64,000 nucleotides of DNA. Source: Nitrospinales bacterium (lineage in GTDB: Bacteria; Nitrospinota_A; UBA7883; JACRGQ01). Below the pieces are notes generated by a model. That model had not been told where the DNA came from. It saw nothing but the letters and a program-made list of their open reading frames with translations, and ran no database searches. The DNA lies in NCBI GenBank assembly GCA_023248535.1, contig JAHFEJ010000002.1:2714-66713 (forward strand), in the 5' to 3' direction. The translations under genes were made by a program, and so were the position numbers. This document shows, one piece after another, positions 2,993 through 63,322 of the stretch (position 1 is the stretch's first letter; every line of letters starts with the position of its first letter).

Positions 2993-3206
2993 GGACAAAC
3001 CCGGGGATCGGTTTTCCGGCGTTTTCCGTGTATTACGCTATTCCACACGCCAGCCGTGTTAAAAAACGTCCTTCAACTTCGGATTCCGGGTTTTATCTTC
3101 CTTCGTATTCATAAAGACGAAGGGGGGTTCAGGCTGAATGCGGCGGAACTATTTCTGGCCGTGGTAGCCGTAGACGCGGTAGAGGGTGAATTGGCGCACC
3201 GGCTTA

Positions 3207-5780
3207 TTATGCGCGGAATTTGATCTTTACGCGTTTTCTGGCAAGCAGGGCGGAGAGGATAAGCATTGCCATGATTCCCAATAAAACGCCAGGATATGCG
3301 GCGCAATAAACTATCGGGAGCAAAAGCGCCATGACCACATTTTTCGCCAATCCATTATTCCGGATTTTATCCGCAAGCGCCGGTGAATAGCGGTTATACA
3401 TTTCCACGAACATCCTTCCCGGCACGTTGGTAAGCAAATGATCGTCCCTGAACCGCTTCAGCACCGTTACATGCCAATCCATATTGTTTCCGTAGGCCGC
3501 TGTTGCTATAAAGCAGCCGGATTTGCCGCCTCCTCCAGCCGAGGCAGTAGTGACGGTAGTTGCCGGGGGGGACGCTGTTGCAGCCGCCGGCGTTCCGTAA
3601 CGAAAGAGTCCTTCCCCCTGGGTTGCCGCATAAAGCACCTTGCCGTCCGCGGATATCGCCATTGACTTAACGGCCCTCGTGGATAATCCGGTCATGGCGC
3701 TGTCCGGGAACGGAGCCCATGTTTCCCCGCCATCGGCCGACATATAAACGCCAGAGGTCCAATCGCCCGCATAAACCGCCGCCGAACCAGCGGGGGCCAC
3801 CACTATCCCCCGCACCTGCGGATTCGCGGAAGAAAACCCGGTGTTTTTCGGCCCCGCCCACGTCGCGCCGCCATCGGCACTTTTGAAAATCCCCACCTTC
3901 TCGCTCGCGGCGAACAGGATCAACGGGTTGGATGGGTCGATGGCGACCGCGCGGATATCCGCGTTACCCAGGCCGTTGAGTTGCGACCAGCTGGAGGCTC
4001 CGTCCGAGGTTGAAAACATGCCGCCGGTGGTGGCCGCGAAGGCTTTTTTGGGATCGGCCGCGCCCACAACGATCATGTTTATATTTTTACCGTCGAGGAC
4101 GGAAGGCTTTGCGGCCCAAGTGGCACCCGCATCGGAGGAAACATAAGTAACGGTTCCCACCGGGACGGTGGTATCGACCGTATTCCGGTCTTTTGCCAGC
4201 CCGGCGTACACGATTCTTGTGTCGGAAGGGGCAAAGGCAAGCGCCTTGAAACCCTGCCGCGTGAGCGAACTGCCGGCGTTCGCGGATGGATGCCTCAGCA
4301 CCTCCGTGAATGTTGCGCCGCTATCAATACTCCTGAAGATCACGCCTTGATGTTCATCGGTAACGATAATGATCGCGGTGTCATCCGGTTTTTGCCGTAT
4401 GGAATACCATTCAGGAATCCCGGATGCGCCGCCCGTTGCAATTCCGGTCCAATCATCCCCGCCGTTTGCGCTTTTGAATGGGCCGCTCCTCCCGATTACA
4501 TAAACAAGGCCGCTGGTTGTCGGATCGACATCCACGCCGTGCAAATCCGCGCCGGTATATCCCTTGCTCCACGCCACCCATGTATTCGCTCCATCGGTGG
4601 ACTTAAAAAGGCCGCCGCCGTAAGCGTTGGCGTACAGGGTATTGGCATCGTCATAGGAGACGGTTACGTCTATCGGCACTCCGGCCCGTATCCCGGCCGG
4701 ACCCCAAATCCCCCCCGAATTCCGGAGGGTGCTCCATGTTGTTCCCCCATCCTGGCTGCGATAGAAAGCGACCGAGCTTCCGGCGTAAACGATCAACGGA
4801 TTGGACGTGCTGAAATTGACGGTGGTGAGAATATCGTTTGATACCACCTTTGTCCATGCACCGCCCCCGTTCGCCGTTTTGAACAGGCCGCTGATGAAAC
4901 CGCCGCCGGAATCCGCGGAACAGGCGTTGTTACCGGTGGCCGCAAAAAGAATGTCGGGGTTCGACGGGTGCATCCGGAGGCTGCCCACGTAAAGATCGGC
5001 AAGGCCGGTGTTTACGGCATTCCACGTCGTTCCGCCGTCGGCGCTTTTTATCACGCCGACCCCGCCCCTGATGCCGTTGGTGCAATCCGAATTATTCGCT
5101 TCCCTGTCGAAAATACCCGTTGATGCATAAAGCATGTTCGGGTCGGCCGGATTGATAATCAGATAGCGGGCGAGGTTATCACCTTTCCATATTTTGACCC
5201 AATTGGCTCCTCCGTCCACGGTTTTGTAAATTCTTCCTTTCGTCCGGTTGAACTCTTTTCCGTTCACCGCCGTCGGCACTTCCGCCATTGCATATACCGT
5301 ATTGGAATTCCCGCTTTGTATGGTAAATCCCCTGAATACCAGCCCTATGTCGGTTTCCAGGCTGATACCGTTGACCATCAGGCTCCAGGTAACTCCCGCA
5401 TCGGCGGACTTATACACCCCAAAATCGGCCCCCTGCCCCTGTGTACCGGCCCAGACTATGTTGGGATCATTGGGATCTATTGTGAGGCTGAAAATAGGAA
5501 CGGAATTGCCGCTGGAACCGGATCGGATAAGAATGCCTGAATTGCTGCTGACCCATGTGGCCCCCGTATTGGAGCTTCTGTTGACGCCGCTCCAGTTGTC
5601 GGTAACCAACATGATGTTTTTTGTGGAAGGGTTGATCCGTATATCGTAACCAAGGCCGCCTATCGGCCCGCCCGTCTTTACCCAGGAACCGGCGTGGCTG
5701 GCGGCAGGGGCAAGGGATAAGGCGAAGAGGCACGACAGGGCCCCAATGCCGAAACCCCGCATCCTATTCACAAAGCGCAA
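3207..5780 (-). CDS. Secreted BNR/Asp-box repeat protein (sortilin/Ycf48-like beta-propeller) with a C-terminal CFIATAAYG motif, TM helix and basic tail
   Basis: 857 aa. Signal peptide. More than 12 S/T-x-D-G-G-x-T/A-W Asp-box repeats. C-terminus GCFIATAAYGN followed by a hydrophobic helix and RKRVKIKFRA. An alternative start at MRGFG (5762) would abut the upstream gene. Confidence 0.75.
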   Translation of the reverse strand: MRFVNRMRGFGIGALSCLFALSLAPAASHAGSWVKTGGPIGGLGYDIRINPSTKNIMLVTDNWSGVNRSSNTGATWVSSNSGILIRSGSSGNSVPIFSLTIDPNDPNIVWAGTQGQGADFGVYKSADAGVTWSLMVNGISLETDIGLVFRGFTIQSGNSNTVYAMAEVPTAVNGKEFNRTKGRIYKTVDGGANWVKIWKGDNLARYLIINPADPNMLYASTGIFDREANNSDCTNGIRGGVGVIKSADGGTTWNAVNTGLADLYVGSLRMHPSNPDILFAATGNNACSADSGGGFISGLFKTANGGGAWTKVVSNDILTTVNFSTSNPLIVYAGSSVAFYRSQDGGTTWSTLRNSGGIWGPAGIRAGVPIDVTVSYDDANTLYANAYGGGLFKSTDGANTWVAWSKGYTGADLHGVDVDPTTSGLVYVIGRSGPFKSANGGDDWTGIATGGASGIPEWYSIRQKPDDTAIIIVTDEHQGVIFRSIDSGATFTEVLRHPSANAGSSLTRQGFKALAFAPSDTRIVYAGLAKDRNTVDTTVPVGTVTYVSSDAGATWAAKPSVLDGKNINMIVVGAADPKKAFAATTGGMFSTSDGASSWSQLNGLGNADIRAVAIDPSNPLILFAASEKVGIFKSADGGATWAGPKNTGFSSANPQVRGIVVAPAGSAAVYAGDWTSGVYMSADGGETWAPFPDSAMTGLSTRAVKSMAISADGKVLYAATQGEGLFRYGTPAAATASPPATTVTTASAGGGGKSGCFIATAAYGNNMDWHVTVLKRFRDDHLLTNVPGRMFVEMYNRYSPALADKIRNNGLAKNVVMALLLPIVYCAAYPGVLLGIMAMLILSALLARKRVKIKFRA

Positions 5781-31713: not shown

Positions 31714-31789
31714 TGTCCCATTATTTTTTGCCTGAATTATTTTGAGACCCTTGATAATTCTTCCCTCCGCAAACAAAGCGGGATAAATT

Positions 31790-33157
31790 ATGCGGATGAA
31801 TCTTGACGATACCATCGCCGCCATCGCCACCCCCGCGGGCGAAGGGGGGCTGGGGGTGATACGCGTTTCAGGCCCCAGCGCCCACCGCATCGCCGCCCCG
31901 CTTTTTTTCCGCAAAGGGGGAAAGCCGGGCGATCCGCTGGAATCGCACCGGCTTTACTTCGGCACGCTGCTCGGCGCGGCGGGGCCGGTGGACGAGGTCT
32001 GCGTGGTCTACATGCGATCGCCGCGCAGCTACACGCGGCAGGATATGGTGGAGATAAGCTGCCACGGCTCCCCCGCCGTGTTGCGCCGCGCCCTCAACAC
32101 GCTGCTGGAGGCCGGCGCGCGGATGGCCGAGCCGGGGGAATTCACCAAGCGGGCGTTTTTGAGCGGGCGCATCGACCTCAGCCAGGCCGAGGGGATCATC
32201 GATCTCATCAAGGCCCGCAGCGAGGGCGCGGCCCGCGCCGCGTTCGGGCTGATGCAGGGGGGGCTGTCGCAACGGATAGAGGCGGTGCGCCAAAAACTGG
32301 TATGGACCCTTTCGCACCTTGAAGCGTCCATCGATTTTCCCGACGAGGAGTTCATCACCGCCACCGATGACGAGCTGCGCAAAACGCTCACCGAGGCCGC
32401 GCGCCGACTGGACATCTTGATAAAAAGCTACGACGGCGGACGGTTTTTAAAGCACGGGCTTTCGCTTGCCATCATCGGCAAACCCAACGCGGGCAAATCA
32501 TCGCTGCTCAACGCGCTGCTGGAGGAAGAGCGGGCCATCGTGGCCGAAATCCCCGGTACTACGCGCGATCTCATCCGCGCCGAGGGGGAACTGGCCGGAC
32601 TGAAAGTGGAACTGATAGACACGGCGGGGCTGAACCCCGCGCCGGATGAGGTGGAAGCCGAGGGGATCCGCCGCGCATTGAAAGCCGCCGAGGGAGCCGA
32701 CGCGGTCATCGGCCTGTTCGACGGCGCGCGCGCATGGGAAGAAAGCGATACGAAAGTGTTGGAGGTGCTGAAAAAAGCGCGGCTCCATCTGGCGGTGATA
32801 AACAAGGCCGATATGCCGCAGCTTATCGCGTGGCCCGACGCCGCCCTGGCGCCGGTCAAAATATCGGTGAAAGAGATGCGCGGCCTCGACCAGCTTCTGA
32901 CAAAAATTGCGGCCTTCGCGCACGATGCTCAGGCGCTCAATCACGAAGAGCCGGTGGTGACGCGGGCGCGCCACCGCGAAATATTTTGCCGCATCGCCGG
33001 CGATTTGCGCCGCGCCGCCGATGAAATCGCGGCGGGGCGCGAACTGGCAGCCGCCAGCGTGTGGGACGCGCTGGAAGAGATAAAGCGGTTCACCGGTGAG
33101 TCGTACACCGAAGAGGTGCTTTCGGCCATCTTTGACGAATTCTGCGTGGGCAAGTGA
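31790..33157 (+). CDS. mnmE: tRNA modification GTPase MnmE
   Basis: 455 aa. G-domain GKPNAGKSSLLNAL. C-terminal C(V)GK motif. Confidence 0.9.
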   Translation: MRMNLDDTIAAIATPAGEGGLGVIRVSGPSAHRIAAPLFFRKGGKPGDPLESHRLYFGTLLGAAGPVDEVCVVYMRSPRSYTRQDMVEISCHGSPAVLRRALNTLLEAGARMAEPGEFTKRAFLSGRIDLSQAEGIIDLIKARSEGAARAAFGLMQGGLSQRIEAVRQKLVWTLSHLEASIDFPDEEFITATDDELRKTLTEAARRLDILIKSYDGGRFLKHGLSLAIIGKPNAGKSSLLNALLEEERAIVAEIPGTTRDLIRAEGELAGLKVELIDTAGLNPAPDEVEAEGIRRALKAAEGADAVIGLFDGARAWEESDTKVLEVLKKARLHLAVINKADMPQLIAWPDAALAPVKISVKEMRGLDQLLTKIAAFAHDAQALNHEEPVVTRARHREIFCRIAGDLRRAADEIAAGRELAAASVWDALEEIKRFTGESYTEEVLSAIFDEFCVGK

Positions 33158-33189
33158 AGCTATTGATCCCCGCATTTATAATGTCCCAT

Positions 33190-33240
33190 ACATGGGTGGC
33201 GCGGACACTCTTGTCCGCGTTGTGCCCGCAAGGGCACAAC
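33190..33240. other. Paired hairpins GGACACTCTTGTCC + GTGCCCGCAAGGGCAC (recurs at 48397-48430)
   Basis: The same two-hairpin arrangement with small substitutions occurs in a second intergenic region. Confidence 0.4.
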
Positions 33241-33347
33241 TGTTTAATTGCCGCGCGGGTATTGCGCGCCCTGCCGGACGCGCCACGGGCAAGAGTGCCC
33301 GTGCCACCAAATGCAACTTTCTTAAATAAAACATTATTTAACGCCCA

Positions 33348-35216
33348 ATGGCTATGAAGCGGTTTGACGTTATCGTGGCCGGGGGCGGCCACGCCGGATG
33401 CGAAGCGGCGCACGCCGCCGCGCGCCTCGGCTGCGCCACCGCGATGGTCGTCACCGACAGGCTCTCCATCGCCCGGATGAGCTGCAACCCCGCCATCGGC
33501 GGTCCCGGCAAAAGCCAGATCGTGCGCGAGATAGACGCGCTGGGCGGCCTGATGGCGCGCGTAACCGACCGCGCCGGGCTGCAATGGCGCACCCTCAACG
33601 GCGCCAAAGGGGCCGCCGTCCGCGCCTGCCGGGCGCAGGCCGACACCATCGAATACGAAACGGCGATGCGGGAAGAGCTGGCCGCCACGCCAAACCTTTC
33701 CATCATCGAAGGAACTGTAAAAGATATTCTGGCAAAGGACGGCGCGGTGCGCGGCGTTCTTTTGCTTTCTGGAGATGAGCTGGCGGCCAATGCGGTGATT
33801 CTATGCACCGGCACGTTCCTCAACGGCCTGTTGCACACCGGCCTTACGCAAACACCGGGGGGGCGCGTGGGCGAGGGGCCGTCGGCGCACCTTTCCGATT
33901 CGCTTAAAAAACTTGGCCTCACGCTTGGCCGCCTGAAAACCGGCACCCCCGCGCGGCTGCACAAGGATTCCATCAACTGGGATGCGGCCCAAGAACAGCC
34001 GGGCGACACGCCGCCGCCGCCGATGTCGTACTTCACCAAAAAGATCGGGCGCGAACAGTTGCCCTGCCACATCACCCACACCAACGCCCGCACGCACGAG
34101 ATCATCCGCACCGGGTTTGGCCGCTCGCCGCTGTTCACCGGCGTGATACAAGGGGTGGGGCCGCGCTACTGTCCCAGCATAGAGGACAAAGTGGTGCGCT
34201 TTCCCGAACGGCTTTCGCATCACATCTTCCTCGAGCCGGTCTCGCGCCACAACGATGAAATCTACCCCAATGGCATATCCACCTCTCTGCCGGAGGACAT
34301 TCAGGACGAATTCCTCCGCTCCATCCCCGGCCTCGAAGAGGTAAAGGTCATCCGCTACGGCTACGCGGTGGAATACGATTTTGTGCCGCCAACGCAAACC
34401 TACCCCACGCTGGAATCGAAGGCGGTGGGCGGCCTCTATCTGGCGGGACAGATCAACGGCACCAGCGGATACGAGGAGGCGGCGGGGCAAGGGCTGTTGG
34501 CCGGCATCAACGCCGCCCGCAAGGTGCGCGGCGAAGAGCCGGTCATTTTGTCACGCGCTGAAAGCTACATCGGCGTGATGGTGGACGACCTCACCACCCT
34601 CGGCACCGAAGAGCCGTACCGCATGTTCACCAGCCGCGCCGAACACCGCTTGGTGATGCGGCAGGATAACGCCGACCAGCGGCTGTGCGAACTGGGCCGC
34701 ATCATCGGCCTGTTGCGAGAAGAACAGTATCGGGAATATCGGGAAAGGCAGGGGCGGATTCAATCGCTGGTGAAGCGGTTGCGGGGGGAGTTTCTCAATC
34801 CCACGCCGGAAACAATGACTTTGCTGCGCAATAGCGGACTCCCGCCGGTGGAGATGTCCATCGGCATCGCTCAATACATGAAACGCCCTGATGTGGCGCT
34901 GAAACGCGACTCCGTCTTTGGCGATCTGGCGGCATTCGACGATGCCGACATCGAGCGGGCCGAAACGGAGATAAAATACGAAGGGTACATCGCCCGGCAA
35001 AACCGCTGGATAGAGCAGATGGGGAAGATTGAGAACATGCCGCTGGAAAAAGAAATGAATTACATCGGCATCTCCGGCCTCTCCGTCGAGCTGCAACAAA
35101 AGTTGGAAAAGGTGAAACCGCTCACCTTCGGTCGGGCGTCGCGCATCGCCGGCATGACCCCTGCCGCGCTCTCCATCTTGATGATCCATCTCAAAACACG
35201 GGGACGAAATGTTTAG
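33348..35216 (+). CDS. mnmG: tRNA uridine 5-carboxymethylaminomethyl modification enzyme MnmG (GidA)
   Basis: 622 aa. FAD-binding DVIVAGGGHAGCEAA. Conserved GidA C-terminal domain. Confidence 0.92.
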   Translation: MAMKRFDVIVAGGGHAGCEAAHAAARLGCATAMVVTDRLSIARMSCNPAIGGPGKSQIVREIDALGGLMARVTDRAGLQWRTLNGAKGAAVRACRAQADTIEYETAMREELAATPNLSIIEGTVKDILAKDGAVRGVLLLSGDELAANAVILCTGTFLNGLLHTGLTQTPGGRVGEGPSAHLSDSLKKLGLTLGRLKTGTPARLHKDSINWDAAQEQPGDTPPPPMSYFTKKIGREQLPCHITHTNARTHEIIRTGFGRSPLFTGVIQGVGPRYCPSIEDKVVRFPERLSHHIFLEPVSRHNDEIYPNGISTSLPEDIQDEFLRSIPGLEEVKVIRYGYAVEYDFVPPTQTYPTLESKAVGGLYLAGQINGTSGYEEAAGQGLLAGINAARKVRGEEPVILSRAESYIGVMVDDLTTLGTEEPYRMFTSRAEHRLVMRQDNADQRLCELGRIIGLLREEQYREYRERQGRIQSLVKRLRGEFLNPTPETMTLLRNSGLPPVEMSIGIAQYMKRPDVALKRDSVFGDLAAFDDADIERAETEIKYEGYIARQNRWIEQMGKIENMPLEKEMNYIGISGLSVELQQKLEKVKPLTFGRASRIAGMTPAALSILMIHLKTRGRNV

Positions 35217-35219
35217 AGT

Positions 35220-35558
35220 AACCACAGAGGCACAGAGACACAGACGGGAAAGGTGCGGCATAACCCGAAAGGTTGTCATACTGAGGGAGCGCTGGCGACC
35301 GAAGTATCTCTTTCCGGCAAGAGCGCTGAAGGTTTTCTCTGTGTCTCCGTGCCTCAGTGGTGATTTCTCATTTTCATATCGGCACCATAATGTTTGGAAT
35401 AACCACCGAGACACAGAGCCACAGACGGGAAAGGGGCGGCATAACTTGGAAGGTTGTCATACTGAGGGAGCACTGGCGACCGAAGTATCTCTTTCCGGCA
35501 AGAGCGCTGAAGGTTTTCTCCGTGCCTCCGTGCCTCTGTGTCTCCGTGCCTCTGTGTT
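35220..35558. repeat. Tandem pair of palindromic elements (E1 35220-35362, E2 35401-35558) sharing an ~95-bp conserved core
   Basis: Both copies carry GACGGGAAAGG(T/G)GCGGCATAAC...GGTTGTCATACTGAGGGAGC(G/A)CTGGCGACCGAAGTATCTCTTTCCGGCAAGAGCGCTGAAGGTTTTCTC between the family TIRs. About 90% identity. Lies between mnmG and rsmG. Confidence 0.8.
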
Positions 35559-35590
35559 TATTTTTTCCCTACGCATGATGCAAGGTTGCC

Positions 35591-36139
35591 ATGACAGATA
35601 AACTCATCACGCGCTATCTGGACGAGCTTTACCGCTGGAATGAAAAGGTGAACCTCACCTCTGTCGCGCGGGAAAAGGCCCACGCGGTGCTCATCGAGCC
35701 GTCGTTCGCGATGGCGGAGTTCTTTCCGCCGGGGGATACGCTGGAGATTTTCGACATCGGCAGCGGCGGCGGACTTCCCGCCATCCCGCTCGCCGTGCGC
35801 CATCCGCGGCACCGTTTCACTCTGGTGGAATCGGACCGGAAGAAGGCGGTTTTTTTACAGCACGCCGCCGGTCTGCTGGGATTGAAAAACGTGCGGGTGC
35901 TGAACGAGCGGAGCGAAAAGGTTTCGCAAGACCCCGCTTGCCGCGGAACCGCCGATGTTGTAACCTCGCGCGCCGTGAAGAGGGAAGATGTTTTTGCCGC
36001 CGCCGACGGCCTGTTGAAACCATCGGGCCGCGTCATCATCCACCACACCCCCGACGCCCCGGAAGTGGCCTCCGGTTACCACCTTTACGGCAAAATCCCC
36101 TCCGCCGACTGCTTCACCCGCCATCTCACCGCCCCATAA
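35591..36139 (+). CDS. rsmG: 16S rRNA (guanine527-N7)-methyltransferase RsmG (GidB)
   Basis: 182 aa. SAM-binding DIGSGGGLP motif. Conserved mnmG-rsmG synteny. Confidence 0.88.
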   Translation: MTDKLITRYLDELYRWNEKVNLTSVAREKAHAVLIEPSFAMAEFFPPGDTLEIFDIGSGGGLPAIPLAVRHPRHRFTLVESDRKKAVFLQHAAGLLGLKNVRVLNERSEKVSQDPACRGTADVVTSRAVKREDVFAAADGLLKPSGRVIIHHTPDAPEVASGYHLYGKIPSADCFTRHLTAP

Positions 36140-40267: not shown

Positions 40268-40269
40268 CG

Positions 40270-41225
40270 CACTCCGTCTGGCATGCTTGCAATATATAAT
40301 AGCCCCACGTTAGATATATGGCCTTTACGACTTATTTATACAACGCAATTTTCTATAAACCCTTACAGTTAGATCACTGTATCCTGTGTTGGCCATACAT
40401 GCCCGTACACTATAAGGCGCAATACTAAATTATTCATGGTCATTTGTATATTTCAATACACATGGCATTTTTAGAAGTTTTTGATACTTAGGCACATTTC
40501 TTTGCCCACCGTAATTGCAATGTAAGTCTTATATCATACATTAATACCATTTATATAACATTTCATGCGACTGACCAAAGAGACAGTATATACGGTGACA
40601 ACTTTTATATATAAAACTCCAGAATTGGCACTCCGATGTCGAGTGAAGACCAATATTCATTGCCGATAGGATAGCCGAACTCATGCATATGCTAGCTGAA
40701 ATATATTTTTTCAATGTTGAGGTCACTTTTCAGCACTTGGGTGCACTTATTAGCCCATAGCAGCGTGGCTCCAGATGCAGATCGCTACGTCTGGATTTTT
40801 GGCAATGGGCCGATCTGAAACCAGCTTAGCCGTCATGGAAAACTGAAATATGTCAACATATTCCATTAATGTCTTCGCGTGATCTTCGACCTTCCTCTTT
40901 GTTAGTTTGAGCCAAACTTCCTCGGTTATTGCCATAATTTTTATTAGAAAACCGAGCCTTCATCGCCCAAGATGCCTTGAGAGCGGTGTGGATTTATTGA
41001 AAGATCAGAATTGCTGACCAATCGGTATGTAACATTCACGTATTGATACACGTAATGTCGCAACGCCCATAATAATAACATATAGCCTGTAAATATGCCT
41101 GAAAAATTGATTTAGGCTCTTGCCATTCAACTGTTTTCCCAATGAAAAATTAAATTTCAGCCCATTATTCCAATATTTATACCAGCAAAATATTGATTAC
41201 AGGGTATCACCGTCTTATATCTTCC
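40270..41225. other. ~950-bp AT-rich (about 40% GC) non-coding island
   Basis: Sharp compositional drop against ~65% flanks. Only short, poorly supported ORFs. Confidence 0.7.
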
Positions 41226-56833: not shown

Positions 56834-56952
56834 ACCACCGAGTCGCAGAGGCACAGAGTTGGAAAACAAGACTCTTATTGCCATCATATTGATATGCTAT
56901 TTCTCCGTGTCTCTGTGTCTCTGTGTCTCTGTGTCTCTGTGTCTCAGTGGTT
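56833..56952. repeat. Palindromic intergenic element copy F with an internal (TCTCTGTG)x5 microsatellite
   Basis: AAACCACCGAGTCGCAGAGGCACAGAG...(GTCTCTGT)n...CTCAGTGGTT. Confidence 0.7.
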
Positions 56953-58221: not shown

Positions 58222-58249
58222 ATTATTTGTGAATTAGTGCGAAGGCCTT

Positions 58250-59059
58250 TTAAAGCCCTACACTAAATAAGTGAGCCATTCTTTTCCCTTTTGCAGAGAA
58301 TACATAGCCGTTCCCATTATCATAAATAATGTTGGCAAGTTGATATTTTTGGATTTCGTCTGCGCTTAAATTCCTACCTCCGTCCTGCAAGACATCATCG
58401 ATTACCTTATTAAACCCATTGAAGAAGTCTACCGTTTTTAACCGGTGGTATTCGGAATCGTTAGCATCAGTCCGACCGGAATCAGGCACCTTGTCTACCT
58501 TCTCCTCATTCCTTTTTTTGCTCTGCTGGCCTACTTCATCTGCCTTTAGCGCCAAGTCGGAAGTGGCCTGAGGATTGGCGGCCATCTCTAAGCTTTTTAT
58601 TTTGTTATTAAGCACTTCAATTGTGGCGTCTTTTTCTTTGATCATGCTTGCCACTTCATGTTTTACCCGTTCCATTTGGACGCGAATTTCATCAGCAGCT
58701 TCTTCTGTTAATAGCTGCTTTTTCTCCTTCTCCTGCTTTATTTTCAACAGTTCTTCCGCTCTATCTTTTGCAAAGGAATATGCCCATTTGGACGGAAAGG
58801 GATATACGAAAATAAAAAACATTGCGGAAATTAAGGGCCCAAAGAACAAATGGATAAACCCTTCCCATGATAATGTCATATAAGAAAATGATTCTATGTT
58901 GGTTATTCGGGCCGAAGCAGTTTCATCACCAATGAACAAAAGCGCGAGAACCTTCCAGTTAATAACTCCCCACGAAAGGATAAAGGCCCCCGACAAAGGG
59001 CTTACAACCCTATCGTAAAGAATAGCCTTGAACGACTTGCTTAATTCTTCAAGCATGGC
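58250..59059 (-). CDS. Membrane-anchored coiled-coil protein of unknown function (low-GC island)
   Basis: Two N-terminal TM helices, a ~100-aa K/E-rich coiled coil and a ~70-aa C-terminal domain. GC about 45%. Confidence 0.5.
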   Translation of the reverse strand, partial: AMLEELSKSFKAILYDRVVSPLSGAFILSWGVINWKVLALLFIGDETASARITNIESFSYMTLSWEGFIHLFFGPLISAMFFIFVYPFPSKWAYSFAKDRAEELLKIKQEKEKKQLLTEEAADEIRVQMERVKHEVASMIKEKDATIEVLNNKIKSLEMAANPQATSDLALKADEVGQQSKKRNEEKVDKVPDSGRTDANDSEYHRLKTVDFFNGFNKVIDDVLQDGGRNLSADEIQKYQLANIIYDNGNGYVFSAKGKRMAHLFSVGL

Positions 59060-59072
59060 TTGACCGAGATGT

Positions 59073-59321
59073 TCATATATCGGCGAATTCTTCGACGGGG
59101 ACGTTAATCTCCTTTGACGCCTTTTTTTTGGAATGGCTGATCTCCTCGAAGGCATGTTCGATTTTTTTCAGGGTTGCGGCTTCATAGTACCGCTCGCCGC
59201 AGAAATCGCATTCTTCGCACGGCACCTCGTTGACGACGAAAAAGCGGCTGCCGCTTTTATAGATGTACTGCGCCTTTTTTGCCGTGAAATTTTTGTTTCC
59301 GCAAAAATTACATGTTTTCAT
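59073..59321 (-). CDS. YgiT-type zinc-finger protein (MqsA-like antitoxin zinc ribbon, no HTH)
   Basis: CxxCG...(28 aa)...CxxCDFCGE pattern (CNFCGN ... CEECDFCGERYY). Confidence 0.6.
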   Translation of the reverse strand: MKTCNFCGNKNFTAKKAQYIYKSGSRFFVVNEVPCEECDFCGERYYEAATLKKIEHAFEEISHSKKKASKEINVPVEEFADI

Positions 59322-59323
59322 GC

Positions 59324-59629
59324 CTACCCTCTTTCCAGGGGATTAATAAACTTTGGTGGCTTCGGGATATACACTGTTATCATCACCGGCCATTCGCCGC
59401 GGCGGCCACAAACAACGTGTACCGGTTTCCCCTGTTTCGTGTAACCGGCTACAAGACAGCTTTCACCGCGGCCCGTATCTTCATAATACTCCAAAAGAAT
59501 GCCGGAAAGCAGGGCATCCTCGATTTCCAGAAATGTTAGCGAATCGTTATGCCGTTCTTCATCGGCATGTTTGGAAACATAATATTGCCCTGCCCTTACC
59601 TGCTCCTTTATCCAATCAAGGGATAGCAT
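59324..59629 (-). CDS. DUF4258-like small protein (toxin-like partner of YgiT/DUF2283 antitoxins)
   Basis: 101 aa. ESCLVAGYTKQGKPVHVVCG...ITVY pattern of DUF4258. ATG overlaps the TAA of the upstream gltS-like gene (TAATG). Confidence 0.55.
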   Translation of the reverse strand: MLSLDWIKEQVRAGQYYVSKHADEERHNDSLTFLEIEDALLSGILLEYYEDTGRGESCLVAGYTKQGKPVHVVCGRRGEWPVMITVYIPKPPKFINPLERG

Positions 59630-61302
59630 TACGTTTCCTTCCGTAAAGCGGGGCGGGGGAAGAGGTCGGCGCAGTTGCGCACGGTGTAATCGGCATCCTT
59701 GAACACCACATGCGAGCGGGTGAATTGCGTGGGCGAGGTGAGGCCGCAGGCGGCCGCGGTGGTGAACAGCCCCGCCCGTACCGTGATGAGGTAGTTCACC
59801 ACGCGGTACATTTTCTCCTCTACAAACAGCGCGCGCTGCATGGCGGGGTCGGTGGTGGCCACGCCGACGGGACACTCGTTCGAGTGGCATTTTTCCGTCA
59901 TGATGCAACCCAGCGTTATCATAAACGCGCGCGCGGCGGCGATGAGGTCGGCCCCCAGCGCCAGGGCTATCGCCTGTTCGTCCGGCAGGTGCAGGCGGCC
60001 CGATGCGATCAGCTTCACCTTGTCCCTCAGGCCGTAGGCGCGGAGCGTATCGTCCGCAATCACGATTGCGGAGTAGACCGGCAGGCCGAGGCTGTCGGCC
60101 ATCTCTTTGTACGTCGCGCCCGATCCCCCTTCGGCTCCATCCACCGTGATGAAATCCGGTCCCGTGCCACGGCGGTGGAACTCGGCGCAGAATTCCTCCA
60201 GACCGCCGCGCCCGCCGATGACCAGCTTCACCCCCACCGGCAGTCCTGCGGTTTCGCGCACCCGTTCGATGAAATCGAAAAGCTGCGGCACGTTGTCGAT
60301 GCCGGGAATGCGGTTGGGGCTGTCGACCGGCTTGTACGGCTCCACGTTGCGTATCGCGGCGATCTCGGCGGTGACTTTGCTGCCCTCCACATGGCCGCCC
60401 CGTATCTTGGCCCCCTGCATCAGCTTGATTTCAATCGCGCGCACTTGCGGTATGCGGGCTTTTTCTCGCAGCAGTTCCCAATCCATCTGTCCGTGTTTGT
60501 CGCGCACGCCGAAAAGTCCCGCGCCGATCTGGAAAACAATGTCGCCTCCCCCCAGCAGGTGATACGGGCTGATTCCCCCTTCGCCGGTGTTCAGCCACGA
60601 TCCGCCAGCCATGCCGACGCCCCGGCTGAGGGCCGACACGGCGTTGGGCCCCAGCGCGCCGTAGCTCATGCCGCTGGTGCCGACAAGTCCCTTCAGCCGC
60701 CACGGCCTTTTTGCGCCGGAGCCGACGGTGAGGGCGTCTTCGTCCGCCAGCAGCCAGGGACGCACGCTCTCTTCCTTCACTTTTTCAAAGCGTATGAACA
60801 GGGTGTCGGCGTCGATGGCGTATTTGCGGGTGGGGATGGCGGCGGGTTGATCGACCGCCATCTCTCCGAGGAGCGGCGGAAAGAGGGTATTTTGCAGGTA
60901 GAGTCCCGGCGCGGCGAAATCGCGCTTGCTGCCGTAGCTGATCAGCGTGTTGAGGTATTTCGAGGCCTTTACGATGGCGATGAACTTCACCCGGCTGATC
61001 GGCTTGCCGGCGTTGTCGTCGTCGGTGATGTAAAAGCGAAGCTCCGGGCCGATTTTTTCGATGACGTAGCGGAGGATGCCGAGGAACCAGTGCTTGCCCC
61101 GCAGCAGCGAGCTTTGCGTCTGCCGCCGGTTGCGCAGGTACAGCCACGCGGTGAACGCCAGCGGCACAAAGAACATGATGCAAAGGATGACGAAACTGGC
61201 GATTGTCAGAATGTGATTGATGATGTCCACCGCGCCCCCCCTTGATACTGCCCGTGTAATGCCGACACCTGCATTGTAGTGAATCGGCATGAAGAACCGC
61301 AA
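59629..61302 (-). CDS. FMN-binding glutamate synthase family protein (GltS FMN domain-like) with an N-terminal TM anchor
   Basis: Conserved GltB domain-2 motifs (GEGG, GAEGGSGA, ASGR). Precise start uncertain. Confidence 0.75.
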   Translation of the reverse strand: MRFFMPIHYNAGVGITRAVSRGGAVDIINHILTIASFVILCIMFFVPLAFTAWLYLRNRRQTQSSLLRGKHWFLGILRYVIEKIGPELRFYITDDDNAGKPISRVKFIAIVKASKYLNTLISYGSKRDFAAPGLYLQNTLFPPLLGEMAVDQPAAIPTRKYAIDADTLFIRFEKVKEESVRPWLLADEDALTVGSGAKRPWRLKGLVGTSGMSYGALGPNAVSALSRGVGMAGGSWLNTGEGGISPYHLLGGGDIVFQIGAGLFGVRDKHGQMDWELLREKARIPQVRAIEIKLMQGAKIRGGHVEGSKVTAEIAAIRNVEPYKPVDSPNRIPGIDNVPQLFDFIERVRETAGLPVGVKLVIGGRGGLEEFCAEFHRRGTGPDFITVDGAEGGSGATYKEMADSLGLPVYSAIVIADDTLRAYGLRDKVKLIASGRLHLPDEQAIALALGADLIAAARAFMITLGCIMTEKCHSNECPVGVATTDPAMQRALFVEEKMYRVVNYLITVRAGLFTTAAACGLTSPTQFTRSHVVFKDADYTVRNCADLFPRPALRKET

Positions 61303-61339
61303 CTATCGCGCGGTGCGCGGCGGGGGTACAATCGGCTTG

Positions 61340-62035
61340 ATGGCAAAAAAGGAGACGGCCGCGCAACGCGCCGAAGGGATCATTGCAAAACTGCGCGCCC
61401 TTTCAAAGCCGGAAAATCTGATTGGGATGGCGCGGTACGGCATCGTGCCCAAAAACGGGCTGGGGGTGAGCATTCCCCATTTGCGAAGCATCGCGAAGGA
61501 GTGCGGAAAAAACCATGCGCTGGCGCAAAAACTCTGGGCCAGCGGCATCCACGACGTGCGGATACTCGCCGCGTTGGTGGACGAGCCGGAGAAAGTTTCT
61601 CCCGCGCAGATGGACCGCTGGGTGAAAACATTTTACTCGTGGGATGTTTGCGATCAGGTCTGCGGCAACCTTTTTGACAAAACCCCATATGCATACGATA
61701 AAGCGCGTGTGTGGCGCCGCGATCCCCGCGAATACGTCAAACGCGCGGGATTTGTGTTGATGGCGGTGTTGGCGGTTCACGACAAGCGGGCGGATGATGC
61801 GCAGTTCATCGAGTTCCTGCCGATGATACGCGAAGGGGCCGAAGACGGGCGGAATTTTGTGAAGAAGGCGGTGAACTGGGCGTTGCGGCAGATCGGCAAG
61901 CGGAATCCGGCCTTGCGGAAAAAAGCGTTGGCGTTGGCGGCGGAACTTGCGGCATCGCCCGATGCGGCACCGCGCTGGGTGGGGCGCGGCGCGTTGCGGG
62001 AATTGAAGAGCATATCGCTGGGGGGGGGGAAGTAA
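61340..62035 (+). CDS. DNA alkylation repair protein (AlkD/AlkC HEAT-like repeat family)
   Basis: 232 aa. PF08713-like pattern (KLRALSKPEN, WDVCDQ). Confidence 0.7.
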   Translation: MAKKETAAQRAEGIIAKLRALSKPENLIGMARYGIVPKNGLGVSIPHLRSIAKECGKNHALAQKLWASGIHDVRILAALVDEPEKVSPAQMDRWVKTFYSWDVCDQVCGNLFDKTPYAYDKARVWRRDPREYVKRAGFVLMAVLAVHDKRADDAQFIEFLPMIREGAEDGRNFVKKAVNWALRQIGKRNPALRKKALALAAELAASPDAAPRWVGRGALRELKSISLGGGK

Positions 62036-62096: not shown

Positions 62097-62264
62097 TTAA
62101 TTAAGGCTGAGTTCAAGGTTGCGGCGGAGATCGGTATAAGTCTCCTGCGCCAACTGCTCGGCGTTGGCCTGATCGGCTTCCAGCTTCCGCGCTTCGTCAA
62201 GAAGGATGCTTATCAGCTCGCCGTGGCTTCTTTCCAGCAACTTCAACATATTTTCTTTAGTCAT
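62097..62264 (-). CDS. Small helical hypothetical protein (55 aa)
   Basis: ORF only. No signature. Confidence 0.25.
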   Translation of the reverse strand: MTKENMLKLLERSHGELISILLDEARKLEADQANAEQLAQETYTDLRRNLELSLN

Positions 62265-62497
62265 TTTTTTGTCTCCTGCACATATGAATAACAAGTCCCG
62301 TGCCAGAGCGGATAAATGACAGTCATGTTTATAAGTAATTGATATATATTGGCTGTTAATGTGGACTTTCCCCAGCCAGTCATCTCTTTGACGCCAACGA
62401 AAGCCTCGGACAGCGTCAACAACCCAGCAAGGATTGCCGGACAAGGCACTTTTTGCCGTGCTGTTTGCGCTTTGTAAACTGTGGATAAAGGATGGGT

Positions 62498-63322
62498 TCA
62501 GCGGCTGATGGCGACGCCGAAGCCGTAGCGGGTGGAACTGTGGTTGTAATCGATCAAGCTTTCGCCATAACCGTCCCACACTTGGAAAAAGAGATCCATA
62601 TTCCCCATGAAGTGATAGTTAACGTCGATCTGCACGTTGCCGTATTCCCATACCCGCCCCTTGCGCACGATGAATGCCCACTGCATCCATTTTTGGTCCA
62701 GGGTTATGGAGAGCTCGTTGTTCCCCTGATAATCGCGGATGTCGGCGTTTTCGGTTGAGCCGTATGCGTACCACCACTTCAGCGCGACAACGAGCGTTTT
62801 AAAATTCAGAGGGAGCTTTGCCGGATCGTCGATCACCATGCGCGGCTCCCAATAGACGCGGTTCCAGCTGCGCGATTCCGGGCCGTCGCGCCCGTTCGAT
62901 TCGTGCTCGAACAGCCCCACTTTTCCCCAGCGCCAGATGCCGGAACCGTGATTGGTGTAGTCCAAGTAAAATTCCGGGTTGTAGTTTGTTTCGCGGAACG
63001 GGAGGGAGGGGGCGGTGACGCTCCAGAACGATTTTTGCGTATAGCCGAAATACATGTTTTTGCAGAGGTGCTGTTTGATGCTCAATTGATATTTGACGTA
63101 ATCGATCATGCCGTCAACCGCGTTTGGCGTTCCCCCCTGATCGAGGAGGAGGTAGTTCCTCTTATGCGGCTTTATCCCCCAATCTTCGCTGGCCGGGATT
63201 TGGTCCCCGGCCGTTGCGTCGCTTTTGCACAGGTTGTAGAGGAAGTCAGCCGGGTCTTCGGCGCGGGCGGTGGAAGGAAAGATGAGCGCCACGGCCGCGA
63301 GGAACAAAAGCAGCCGTTTCAT
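62498..63322 (-). CDS. pldA: Outer-membrane phospholipase A1
   Basis: Signal peptide. YTQKS and HESNG catalytic motifs. Confidence 0.85.
   Translation of the reverse strand: MKRLLLFLAAVALIFPSTARAEDPADFLYNLCKSDATAGDQIPASEDWGIKPHKRNYLLLDQGGTPNAVDGMIDYVKYQLSIKQHLCKNMYFGYTQKSFWSVTAPSLPFRETNYNPEFYLDYTNHGSGIWRWGKVGLFEHESNGRDGPESRSWNRVYWEPRMVIDDPAKLPLNFKTLVVALKWWYAYGSTENADIRDYQGNNELSITLDQKWMQWAFIVRKGRVWEYGNVQIDVNYHFMGNMDLFFQVWDGYGESLIDYNHSSTRYGFGVAISR

Follow-up and report, generated by a model that had tools for sequence, protein, structure and literature searches.

Here, we analyzed a 64,000-nucleotide stretch of a Nitrospinales bacterium (GenBank assembly GCA_023248535.1, contig JAHFEJ010000002.1, positions 2,714 to 66,713; hereafter the window), focusing on a low-GC segment of ~1.4 kb that carries three tightly spaced genes, A, B, and C. 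An earlier note, made from the letters alone, had proposed that a toxin-antitoxin (TA)-like pair is wired here to a membrane effector, plausibly as an uncharacterized defense system. Our comparisons indicate that the segment is probably a small accessory islet of two functionally separate units. The first, A-B, is predicted to belong to a widespread TA family known bioinformatically, in which a DUF4258 toxin gene comes first and is followed by the gene for a YgiT antitoxin without a helix-turn-helix (HTH) domain; the second is gene C, a member of a large family of membrane proteins. The three genes, with lengths in amino acids (aa), are:

59324–59629, minus strand: gene A, a 101-aa DUF4258 protein (Pfam PF14076, E = 5.7e-16)
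59073–59321, minus strand: gene B, an 82-aa YgiT-type zinc-ribbon protein without HTH (TIGR03831, E = 7.8e-10)
58250–59056, minus strand: gene C, a 268-aa membrane-anchored protein of a large uncharacterized family

All three genes are co-oriented and together span positions 59629–58250, with gaps of 2 nt between A and B and 16 nt between B and C; 28 nt past the stop codon of C lies the end of a convergent gene encoding a 113-aa protein. The GC content of the module is 0.44 amid DNA of 58–63% GC, compared with a window mean of 0.58 (~3 standard deviations low, the standard deviation across 1.4-kb windows being 0.045), and in 200-bp windows it falls from 0.60–0.66 in the flanks to 0.36–0.50 at ~58.2–59.6 kb, as the earlier note had described. 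Only a patch at ~39.9–41.3 kb is lower, making the module the second-lowest GC patch of the 64-kb window. GC at third codon positions is lowered as well (A 0.49, B 0.60, and C 0.45, versus 0.70–0.82 for neighboring genes), so amino-acid composition is not the cause of the low GC. These values support the view that the module is compositionally foreign. Searches for direct or inverted repeats and target-site duplications flanking 58.2–59.7 kb returned only short chance matches, no module-specific sigma-70 promoter or terminator exceeded shuffled expectation, and Rfam and tRNA scans of the window identified a tRNA-Gln at 46.0 kb alone, unrelated to the module.

Gene A matched PF14076 with 59 bits (cut-off 25), its residues 19–87 aligning to positions 2–70 of the 71-position profile. 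DUF4258 was the only Pfam match at E ≤ 0.1, and membership in MqsR (PF15723) was not found. We recovered 454 homologues at E ≤ 1e-5 from many phyla, ~60% identical and ~100 aa long. In a 40-sequence alignment, E25, R26, Y49, R54, S57, C58, and C74 were invariant and H21 near-invariant; all are kept in the window copy, and the invariant polar residues represent a candidate active site. A PDB sequence search with A gave no match, and the ratio of nonsynonymous to synonymous substitution rates (dN/dS) against relatives was 0.07–0.12. DUF4258 is catalogued among the RelE/ParE-superfamily (BECR) TA toxins, its activity given as unknown and without an experimental reference, in a survey that also lists 17 DUF4258-MqsA fusion proteins (PMC11980606, Gerdes 2025), and a 2026 preprint groups it with colicin-like BECR domains and Ntox49 (bioRxiv 10.64898/2026.08.28.747851). 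We predict that A adopts a BECR fold, of the RelE/ParE superfamily or colicin-like, and acts as an RNase-type toxin.

Gene B scored 38.9 bits against the YgiT_finger model TIGR03831 (cut-off 20.2), and its translation contains two CxxCG motifs, CNFCG at residues 4–8 and CDFCG at residues 38–42. Its match to the MqsA models was confined to their N-terminal halves and stayed below their cut-offs (TIGR03830: 27 bits versus 61.8, profile positions 1–64 of 127; PF15731: 22.8 bits versus 30, positions 2–63 of 131), from which it follows that B lacks the HTH. With 82 aa, B is also too short to hold this domain, and the full-length MqsA architecture is absent. A PDB sequence search with B gave chance zinc-finger matches only. 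The dN/dS of B was 0.03–0.08. MqsA binds its toxin via the zinc-binding N-terminal domain and DNA via the C-terminal domain (PMC2791442); B is the predicted antitoxin of A. An orphan YgiT gene, 84% identical to B at the nucleotide level and devoid of a DUF4258 partner, occurs at positions 3971–4219 of another locus (L008), directly after a rhodanese/lactamase_B gene and ahead of a GIY-YIG gene.

A metagenome scan with the A alignment yielded 80 loci (L016–L095) harboring 66 distinct A sequences. Right behind the DUF4258 gene, overlapping it or a few nucleotides off, 76 of the 80 loci encoded a YgiT open reading frame (ORF) of 81–89 aa; B is not visible in the remaining four because their contigs end ~100 nt or less past the stop codon of A. 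The order toxin then YgiT accordingly held in 76 of 76 testable loci, in agreement with the earlier expectation that DUF4258 is usually paired with YgiT. Such conserved linkage of a toxin and its partner across unrelated genomes is the mark of type II TA systems. A relative of gene C was found in none of the 80 loci, 40 of which extend at least 850 nt beyond B, and no other recurrent third gene occurred downstream of B among them. As a positive control, the same hidden Markov models (HMMs) detected C in the window and in two related loci, L005 and L006, at E-values of 1e-78 to 1e-129. Strict pairing of A with B and the absence of C characterize these A-B loci. Of 24 long loci, 22 had a cassette richer in AT than the DNA on either side (means 0.38 versus 0.44), which fits a mobile cassette.

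Gene C is predicted to encode two transmembrane (TM) helices (residues ~24–42 and ~66–86), a coiled coil (~86–174) with a K/E-rich stretch (27 of residues 99–165, i.e. 27/67, charged), a disordered linker (177–195), and a C-terminal winged helix (197–265). The earlier note had drawn the same outline of two TM helices, a coiled coil, and a distinct C-terminal domain, except that the protein is 268 aa and not 269 aa long. An AlphaFold2 model (predicted local distance difference test, pLDDT, 86) comprised an N-terminal helix, a TM hairpin, long helices over residues 86–174, disorder at 177–195, and a compact H-H-H-β-β-H domain at 197–265. In this model, the topology of the C-terminal domain, H-H-H-β-β(-H), is superposable on known winged-helix domains, which shows a winged-helix fold. 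A Foldseek search against PDB returned no significant match for either the full-length model or the C-terminal domain. Hydropathy gave two TM segments, and because a K/R-rich stretch follows the second, the C-terminal part should be cytoplasmic.

Gene C had no match in Pfam, NCBIfam, or PADLOC, in line, as far as curated families go, with the earlier note, whose author could not match it to any known family; it nevertheless matched five PHROG families of unknown function through its N-terminal module (best E = 1.2e-12) and has thousands of uncharacterized relatives. A PDB search with the C profile gave matches solely through the pentapeptide repeats of relatives. In a word-indexed search, seven relatives were found, of which two shared the architecture at 63–65% identity and one at 32%, and three shared residues 1 to ~165 at ~55% identity but end in pentapeptide repeats; the nearest named relative was from a Candidatus Desulfatibia metagenome-assembled genome (MAG). 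The full profile search recovered 3,662 representative clusters at E ≤ 1e-3 and 1,754 at E ≤ 1e-10. Among the best 150 of the 3,662 clusters, proteins were mostly 240–300 aa long and matched mainly over the N-terminal 150–200 residues. All near-invariant residues (L13, Y14, R16, S19, P20, L21, G23, F25, S28, W29, N33, P74, Y85, P86, and L116) fall within the first 120. The family has no Pfam model; of 60 members, three weakly matched HTH_45, one matched PadR, and one matched ScpB, and all named members are annotated "hypothetical protein". The dN/dS of C was 0.21–0.34, the linker and winged helix changing fastest and the C-terminal domain evolving ~2x faster than the TM module. The predicted plan of the C family is a conserved N-terminal TM hairpin combined with interchangeable cytoplasmic C-terminal domains, a winged helix in this case and pentapeptide repeats in its closest relatives.

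C-family genes were further surveyed at 13 loci outside the clade, and in none of these (0/13) did DUF4258 or YgiT lie beside them. In Flavobacteriia, the gene is monocistronic and syntenic, with the same two flanking genes in Dokdonia and Algibacter, and in Marinobacter it stands among metabolic genes. The Akkermansiaceae form is 159 aa long and consists of the N-terminal module only, the Roseivirgaceae form has 502 aa and lies behind a DUF433 gene, and the Paceibacterota form is followed downstream by a weak DUF4145 match. Desulfatibia-type pentapeptide variants adjoin a response-regulator/HD gene, at one locus (L003) also DarT-DarG, and a close relative of C (L099) sits between a fragment of an Mrr-type nuclease and a DUF4062 protein. 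Only two viral contigs with C-family genes were found, using narrower alignments, and both carry tandem paralogues (L015, 4989–7153; L101, 2425–5713). In L101, a P2-like phage, the interval from gpA to ogr/portal gpQ is taken up by the paralogue pair, which resembles gene C only remotely, together with a 364-aa membrane protein. The gpA-gpQ interval of P2-like phages is a defense hotspot (Rousset et al. 2022, PMC9122126). These contexts are hints of an accessory or defense role and not a statistical association.

A different role for C follows if such contexts are taken at face value. C alone would be an anti-phage or superinfection-exclusion protein whose variable domain senses phage and whose TM hairpin damages or gates the membrane; the family at large (at least 1,700 clusters at E ≤ 1e-10, with winged-helix, pentapeptide, and other heads) would consist of single-gene anti-phage or exclusion sensors, and the islet would be a miniature defense island. 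The PHROG matches of the N-terminal module, the tandem paralogues in viral contig L015 and in the L101 hotspot, the neighbors DarT-DarG, Mrr-type nuclease with DUF4062, DUF433 (L012), and the A-B pair itself, as well as the faster evolution of the C-terminal domain, all point in this direction. However, several members occupy stable housekeeping contexts (the syntenic Dokdonia and Algibacter genes, Marinobacter, Akkermansiaceae, and locus L002), C has no PADLOC match, its dN/dS is <1 throughout, and the neighborhood sample is small and without comparison to a background rate. We regard this explanation as rather unlikely. The likeness to the P2-like hotspot genes lies in the tandem placement of distant relatives of C, whereas the kinship is remote, PADLOC gives no match, and C is chromosomal rather than located in a prophage.

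The history of the locus in relatives bears on whether the three genes form one unit, and requires the flanking features:

59629–61302, minus strand: gltS-like gene of the FMN-binding glutamate-synthase family (Pfam Glu_synthase, E = 1.1e-84; coordinates of the longest ORF)
59633–59640, minus strand: Shine-Dalgarno-like cassette leader AAGGAAAC, identified by aligning the window to L005 and L007
57880–58221, plus strand: convergent gene for a 113-aa Cys-rich protein (from BLASTN and alignments; no Pfam or NCBIfam match)

The triad was found at three loci only, the window, L005, and L006, each of which has the convergent 113-aa gene as its right-hand neighbor. Because of this common right flank, they represent one chromosomal site in related organisms and not independent acquisitions; the closest assemblies are GCA_023248495.1 and GCA_021815535.1. 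In a fourth locus, L007, the right side is syntenic (hflX, 90% identical at the nucleotide level, the Sel1-repeat gene, and the 113-aa gene) and A-B is intact at 86% nucleotide identity, but C is cut to its first 14 codons (MLEELTKSFKAILY, 3086–3127). The upstream region of L007 differs from that of the window. It includes a HepT/MNT (HEPN-nucleotidyltransferase) TA pair at 1455–2232, just upstream of A-B, so that a small TA cluster is present there. In L097, the gltS-like protein is 90% identical to that of the window, and triad fragments follow straight after the gltS-like stop codon (4255–4540). In them, 11 codons of A are joined to the last ~50 codons of B; the final nine codons of C come next, with a fragment of the 113-aa gene behind this remnant. 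These relics imply that the order gltS, A, B, C, convergent 113-aa gene was already in place before the window and L097 diverged. The islet is eroding piece by piece: one lineage is without C, and another has lost nearly all three genes. Where kept, A, B, and C are under purifying selection and have diverged together (dN/dS 0.03–0.34; dS ~0.75 for all three genes against L005, L006, and L007).

The earlier view of a 1.4-kb insertion, taken as a clean one, is not supported by this comparison. L096 (GCA_023248495.1, ~86% identical at the nucleotide level, compared with window positions 31784–36121 and 59637–62005; gltS-like protein 91% identical) has the gltS-like gene followed directly by gidB-gidA-trmE, whereas in the window these genes lie at 31784–36121, ~23.5 kb from it, and the gltS stop is therefore a large-scale synteny breakpoint. 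A recent clean insertion was considered and rejected: no clean empty site was found, the closest relatives are heavily rearranged at exactly this junction, and at a synteny breakpoint a clean insertion cannot be shown.

It is improbable that A, B, and C constitute one three-component system in which the TA-like pair governs the membrane protein or is governed by it, with C serving an abortive-infection or defense module as effector or sensor, or with its winged helix replacing the missing HTH of B. Shared strand and short gaps, retention of the triad in the window, L005, and L006 under purifying selection with similar dS, the common low GC, the lack of an HTH in B while C ends in a winged helix, and a family plan (constant TM module, variable C-termini) resembling that of sensor-effector defense proteins are all compatible with such a system. 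Yet C is missing from all 80 other A-B loci, including the 40 with room for it, A and B are missing from all 13 C-family loci outside the clade, and L007 has lost C with A-B intact. Since the triad loci all occupy the same site in close relatives, their co-occurrence reflects one inherited event and not repeated co-selection. PADLOC gave no match to A, B, or C (in the PADLOC-DB v2 scan, the best E-values, 0.026–0.033, belonged to unrelated Cas models). PaaR-PaaA-ParE and omega-epsilon-zeta are tripartite TA systems. The SecB-like chaperone-dependent toxin-antitoxin-chaperone (TAC) system is likewise tripartite (cited in PMC11980606). The window resembles them in having three co-oriented, tightly spaced genes, the third of which could in principle supply regulation, but the third gene is co-conserved there, whereas here it is absent from other A-B loci and lost in L007. 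Co-conservation of the third gene with the pair was found within one narrow lineage and not in independent ones, and neither a recurrent three-gene defense system nor the proposed wiring of the TA pair to a membrane effector is supported. Outside that lineage, the outcome is the one that the earlier note had itself named as refuting its proposal. A polymorphic-toxin-type effector (Ntox49/colicin-like) aimed at competitors, with B as its immunity protein, is very improbable: DUF4258 does overlap with Ntox49 and group with colicin-like BECR domains, but A, like its aligned homologues (listed at 93–126 aa), is a free-standing protein (101 aa) that lacks any delivery domain or signal, the gene directly behind it encodes in all cases a small cytoplasmic zinc-ribbon protein akin to the toxin-binding domain of MqsA, and no secretion-system genes lie near the module in the window.

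We thus favor two units, a TA cassette and an independent gene C, and several observations weigh against this preference. The C-family neighborhood survey comprises 13 loci outside the clade only. Within the clade, three loci have C co-oriented with B at a distance of 16 nt, and C shares low GC and similar dS with the pair; because spacing, strand, GC, and dS are common, a clade-specific functional link between C and A-B may exist. In a narrower variant, C may have joined the TA module of this clade as its third member, for example to provide the DNA binding or sensing that is missing from B. The searched literature, moreover, contained no experiments on any DUF4258-YgiT pair, so that toxicity and neutralization are predictions; together with RNase activity, we infer them for A-B.

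With the two-unit reading, we propose that B binds A and blocks it sterically, and that A would cleave RNA upon loss or degradation of B, leading to growth arrest. B would be the counterpart of the toxin-binding N-terminal domain of MqsA minus its DNA-binding HTH, and the cassette is probably without MqsA-style autoregulation because B has no DNA-binding domain. C probably acts as a membrane-tethered dimer whose winged helix may bind a nucleic acid or protein ligand, and would be a gene independent of A-B, co-transcribed with it in this clade only.

Expression of the cassette likely depends on its upstream neighbor. The gltS-like gene, whose true start may be the GTG at 61227, is native and lies outside the cassette. 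Its homologues, 89–91% identical, end in …FPRPPAR*, …FPRPPIR*, or …FPRPSLRVGF*, and the window copy ends in …FPRPALRKET*; comparison of these C-termini indicates that the host gene is complete and runs three codons into the cassette leader. At 59640–59633, this leader doubles as coding sequence for the last gltS-like residues (…KET*). BLASTN placed the homology boundary at 59640 against L005 and L007 and at 59637–59642 against L096 and L097, the AAGGAAAC motif being the left limit of window homology to L005 and L007. The stop codon of the gltS-like gene (TAA, 59631–59629) and the ATG of A (59629–59627) overlap as TAATG, which confirms an earlier reading of the sequence. The upstream region that precedes the cassette in L005 and L007 is absent from the window, and transcription of the cassette in this genome probably reads through from the gltS-like gene, with A probably coupled translationally to that gene via TAATG. 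Read-through and coupling appear likely because the upstream region is missing and no promoter-like site was seen. The idea that the module is fused into a host transcription unit is correct in part only. On the other side, the 113-aa gene forms a conserved right flank in the window, L005, L006, and L007, and persists as a fragment in L097. Its product carries a conserved Cys-rich motif (…CGVSFEEAVPSCCAGGG…), and its ATG overlaps the stop codon of the upstream Sel1-repeat gene (ATGA).

Comparison with described systems places A-B near, but not within, MqsR-MqsA (YgiU-YgiT of E. coli). The two share the order of toxin then antitoxin, a small protein with a predicted RNase fold as toxin, and an antitoxin with the YgiT CxxCG…CxxCG zinc ribbon. 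In MqsA, this ribbon forms the structured domain that binds the toxin (PMC2791442). They differ in that A is a DUF4258 protein and not MqsR, and in that B, at 82 aa, has no C-terminal XRE-HTH, so MqsA-style promoter binding is not expected. Its HMM score and conserved residues place A clearly in the catalogued DUF4258 family, for which an association with MqsA-like partners is already recorded (PMC11980606). The catalogue gives the order as antitoxin/toxin, unlike the toxin-first order of all 76 testable loci.

Other features of the window touch on its composition. The window minimum is an AT-rich gap of ~850 bp between trpD and clpB (40268–41119, GC ~0.42), whose longest overlapping ORF has 62 aa and which has no Rfam match. 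The synteny of L002 had raised the idea that this gap is the relic of a gene-C paralogue, which we rejected since no remnant was found; nor did the gap contain a remnant of the response-regulator gene that follows trpD in L002. A further small low-GC patch (0.41–0.49 at 62.1–62.5 kb) corresponds to a minus-strand ORF of 160 aa at 62097–62579 with no Pfam match, and an (TCTCTGTG)x6 microsatellite lies at 56902–56949, in the lower-GC intergenic stretch between hflX and the Sel1-repeat gene.

Taken as two units, the locus has consequences for annotation. The A-B pair can carry the label of a DUF4258/YgiT-type TA cassette, and because the antitoxin lacks an HTH in every locus examined, one may ask by what means such cassettes are regulated. 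What happened to the islet in relatives speaks against an obligatory link among the three genes. C offers the more useful lead, as a member of a very large family without a Pfam model but with a confident structural model, some of whose genes lie in phage hotspots or near TA or restriction genes.

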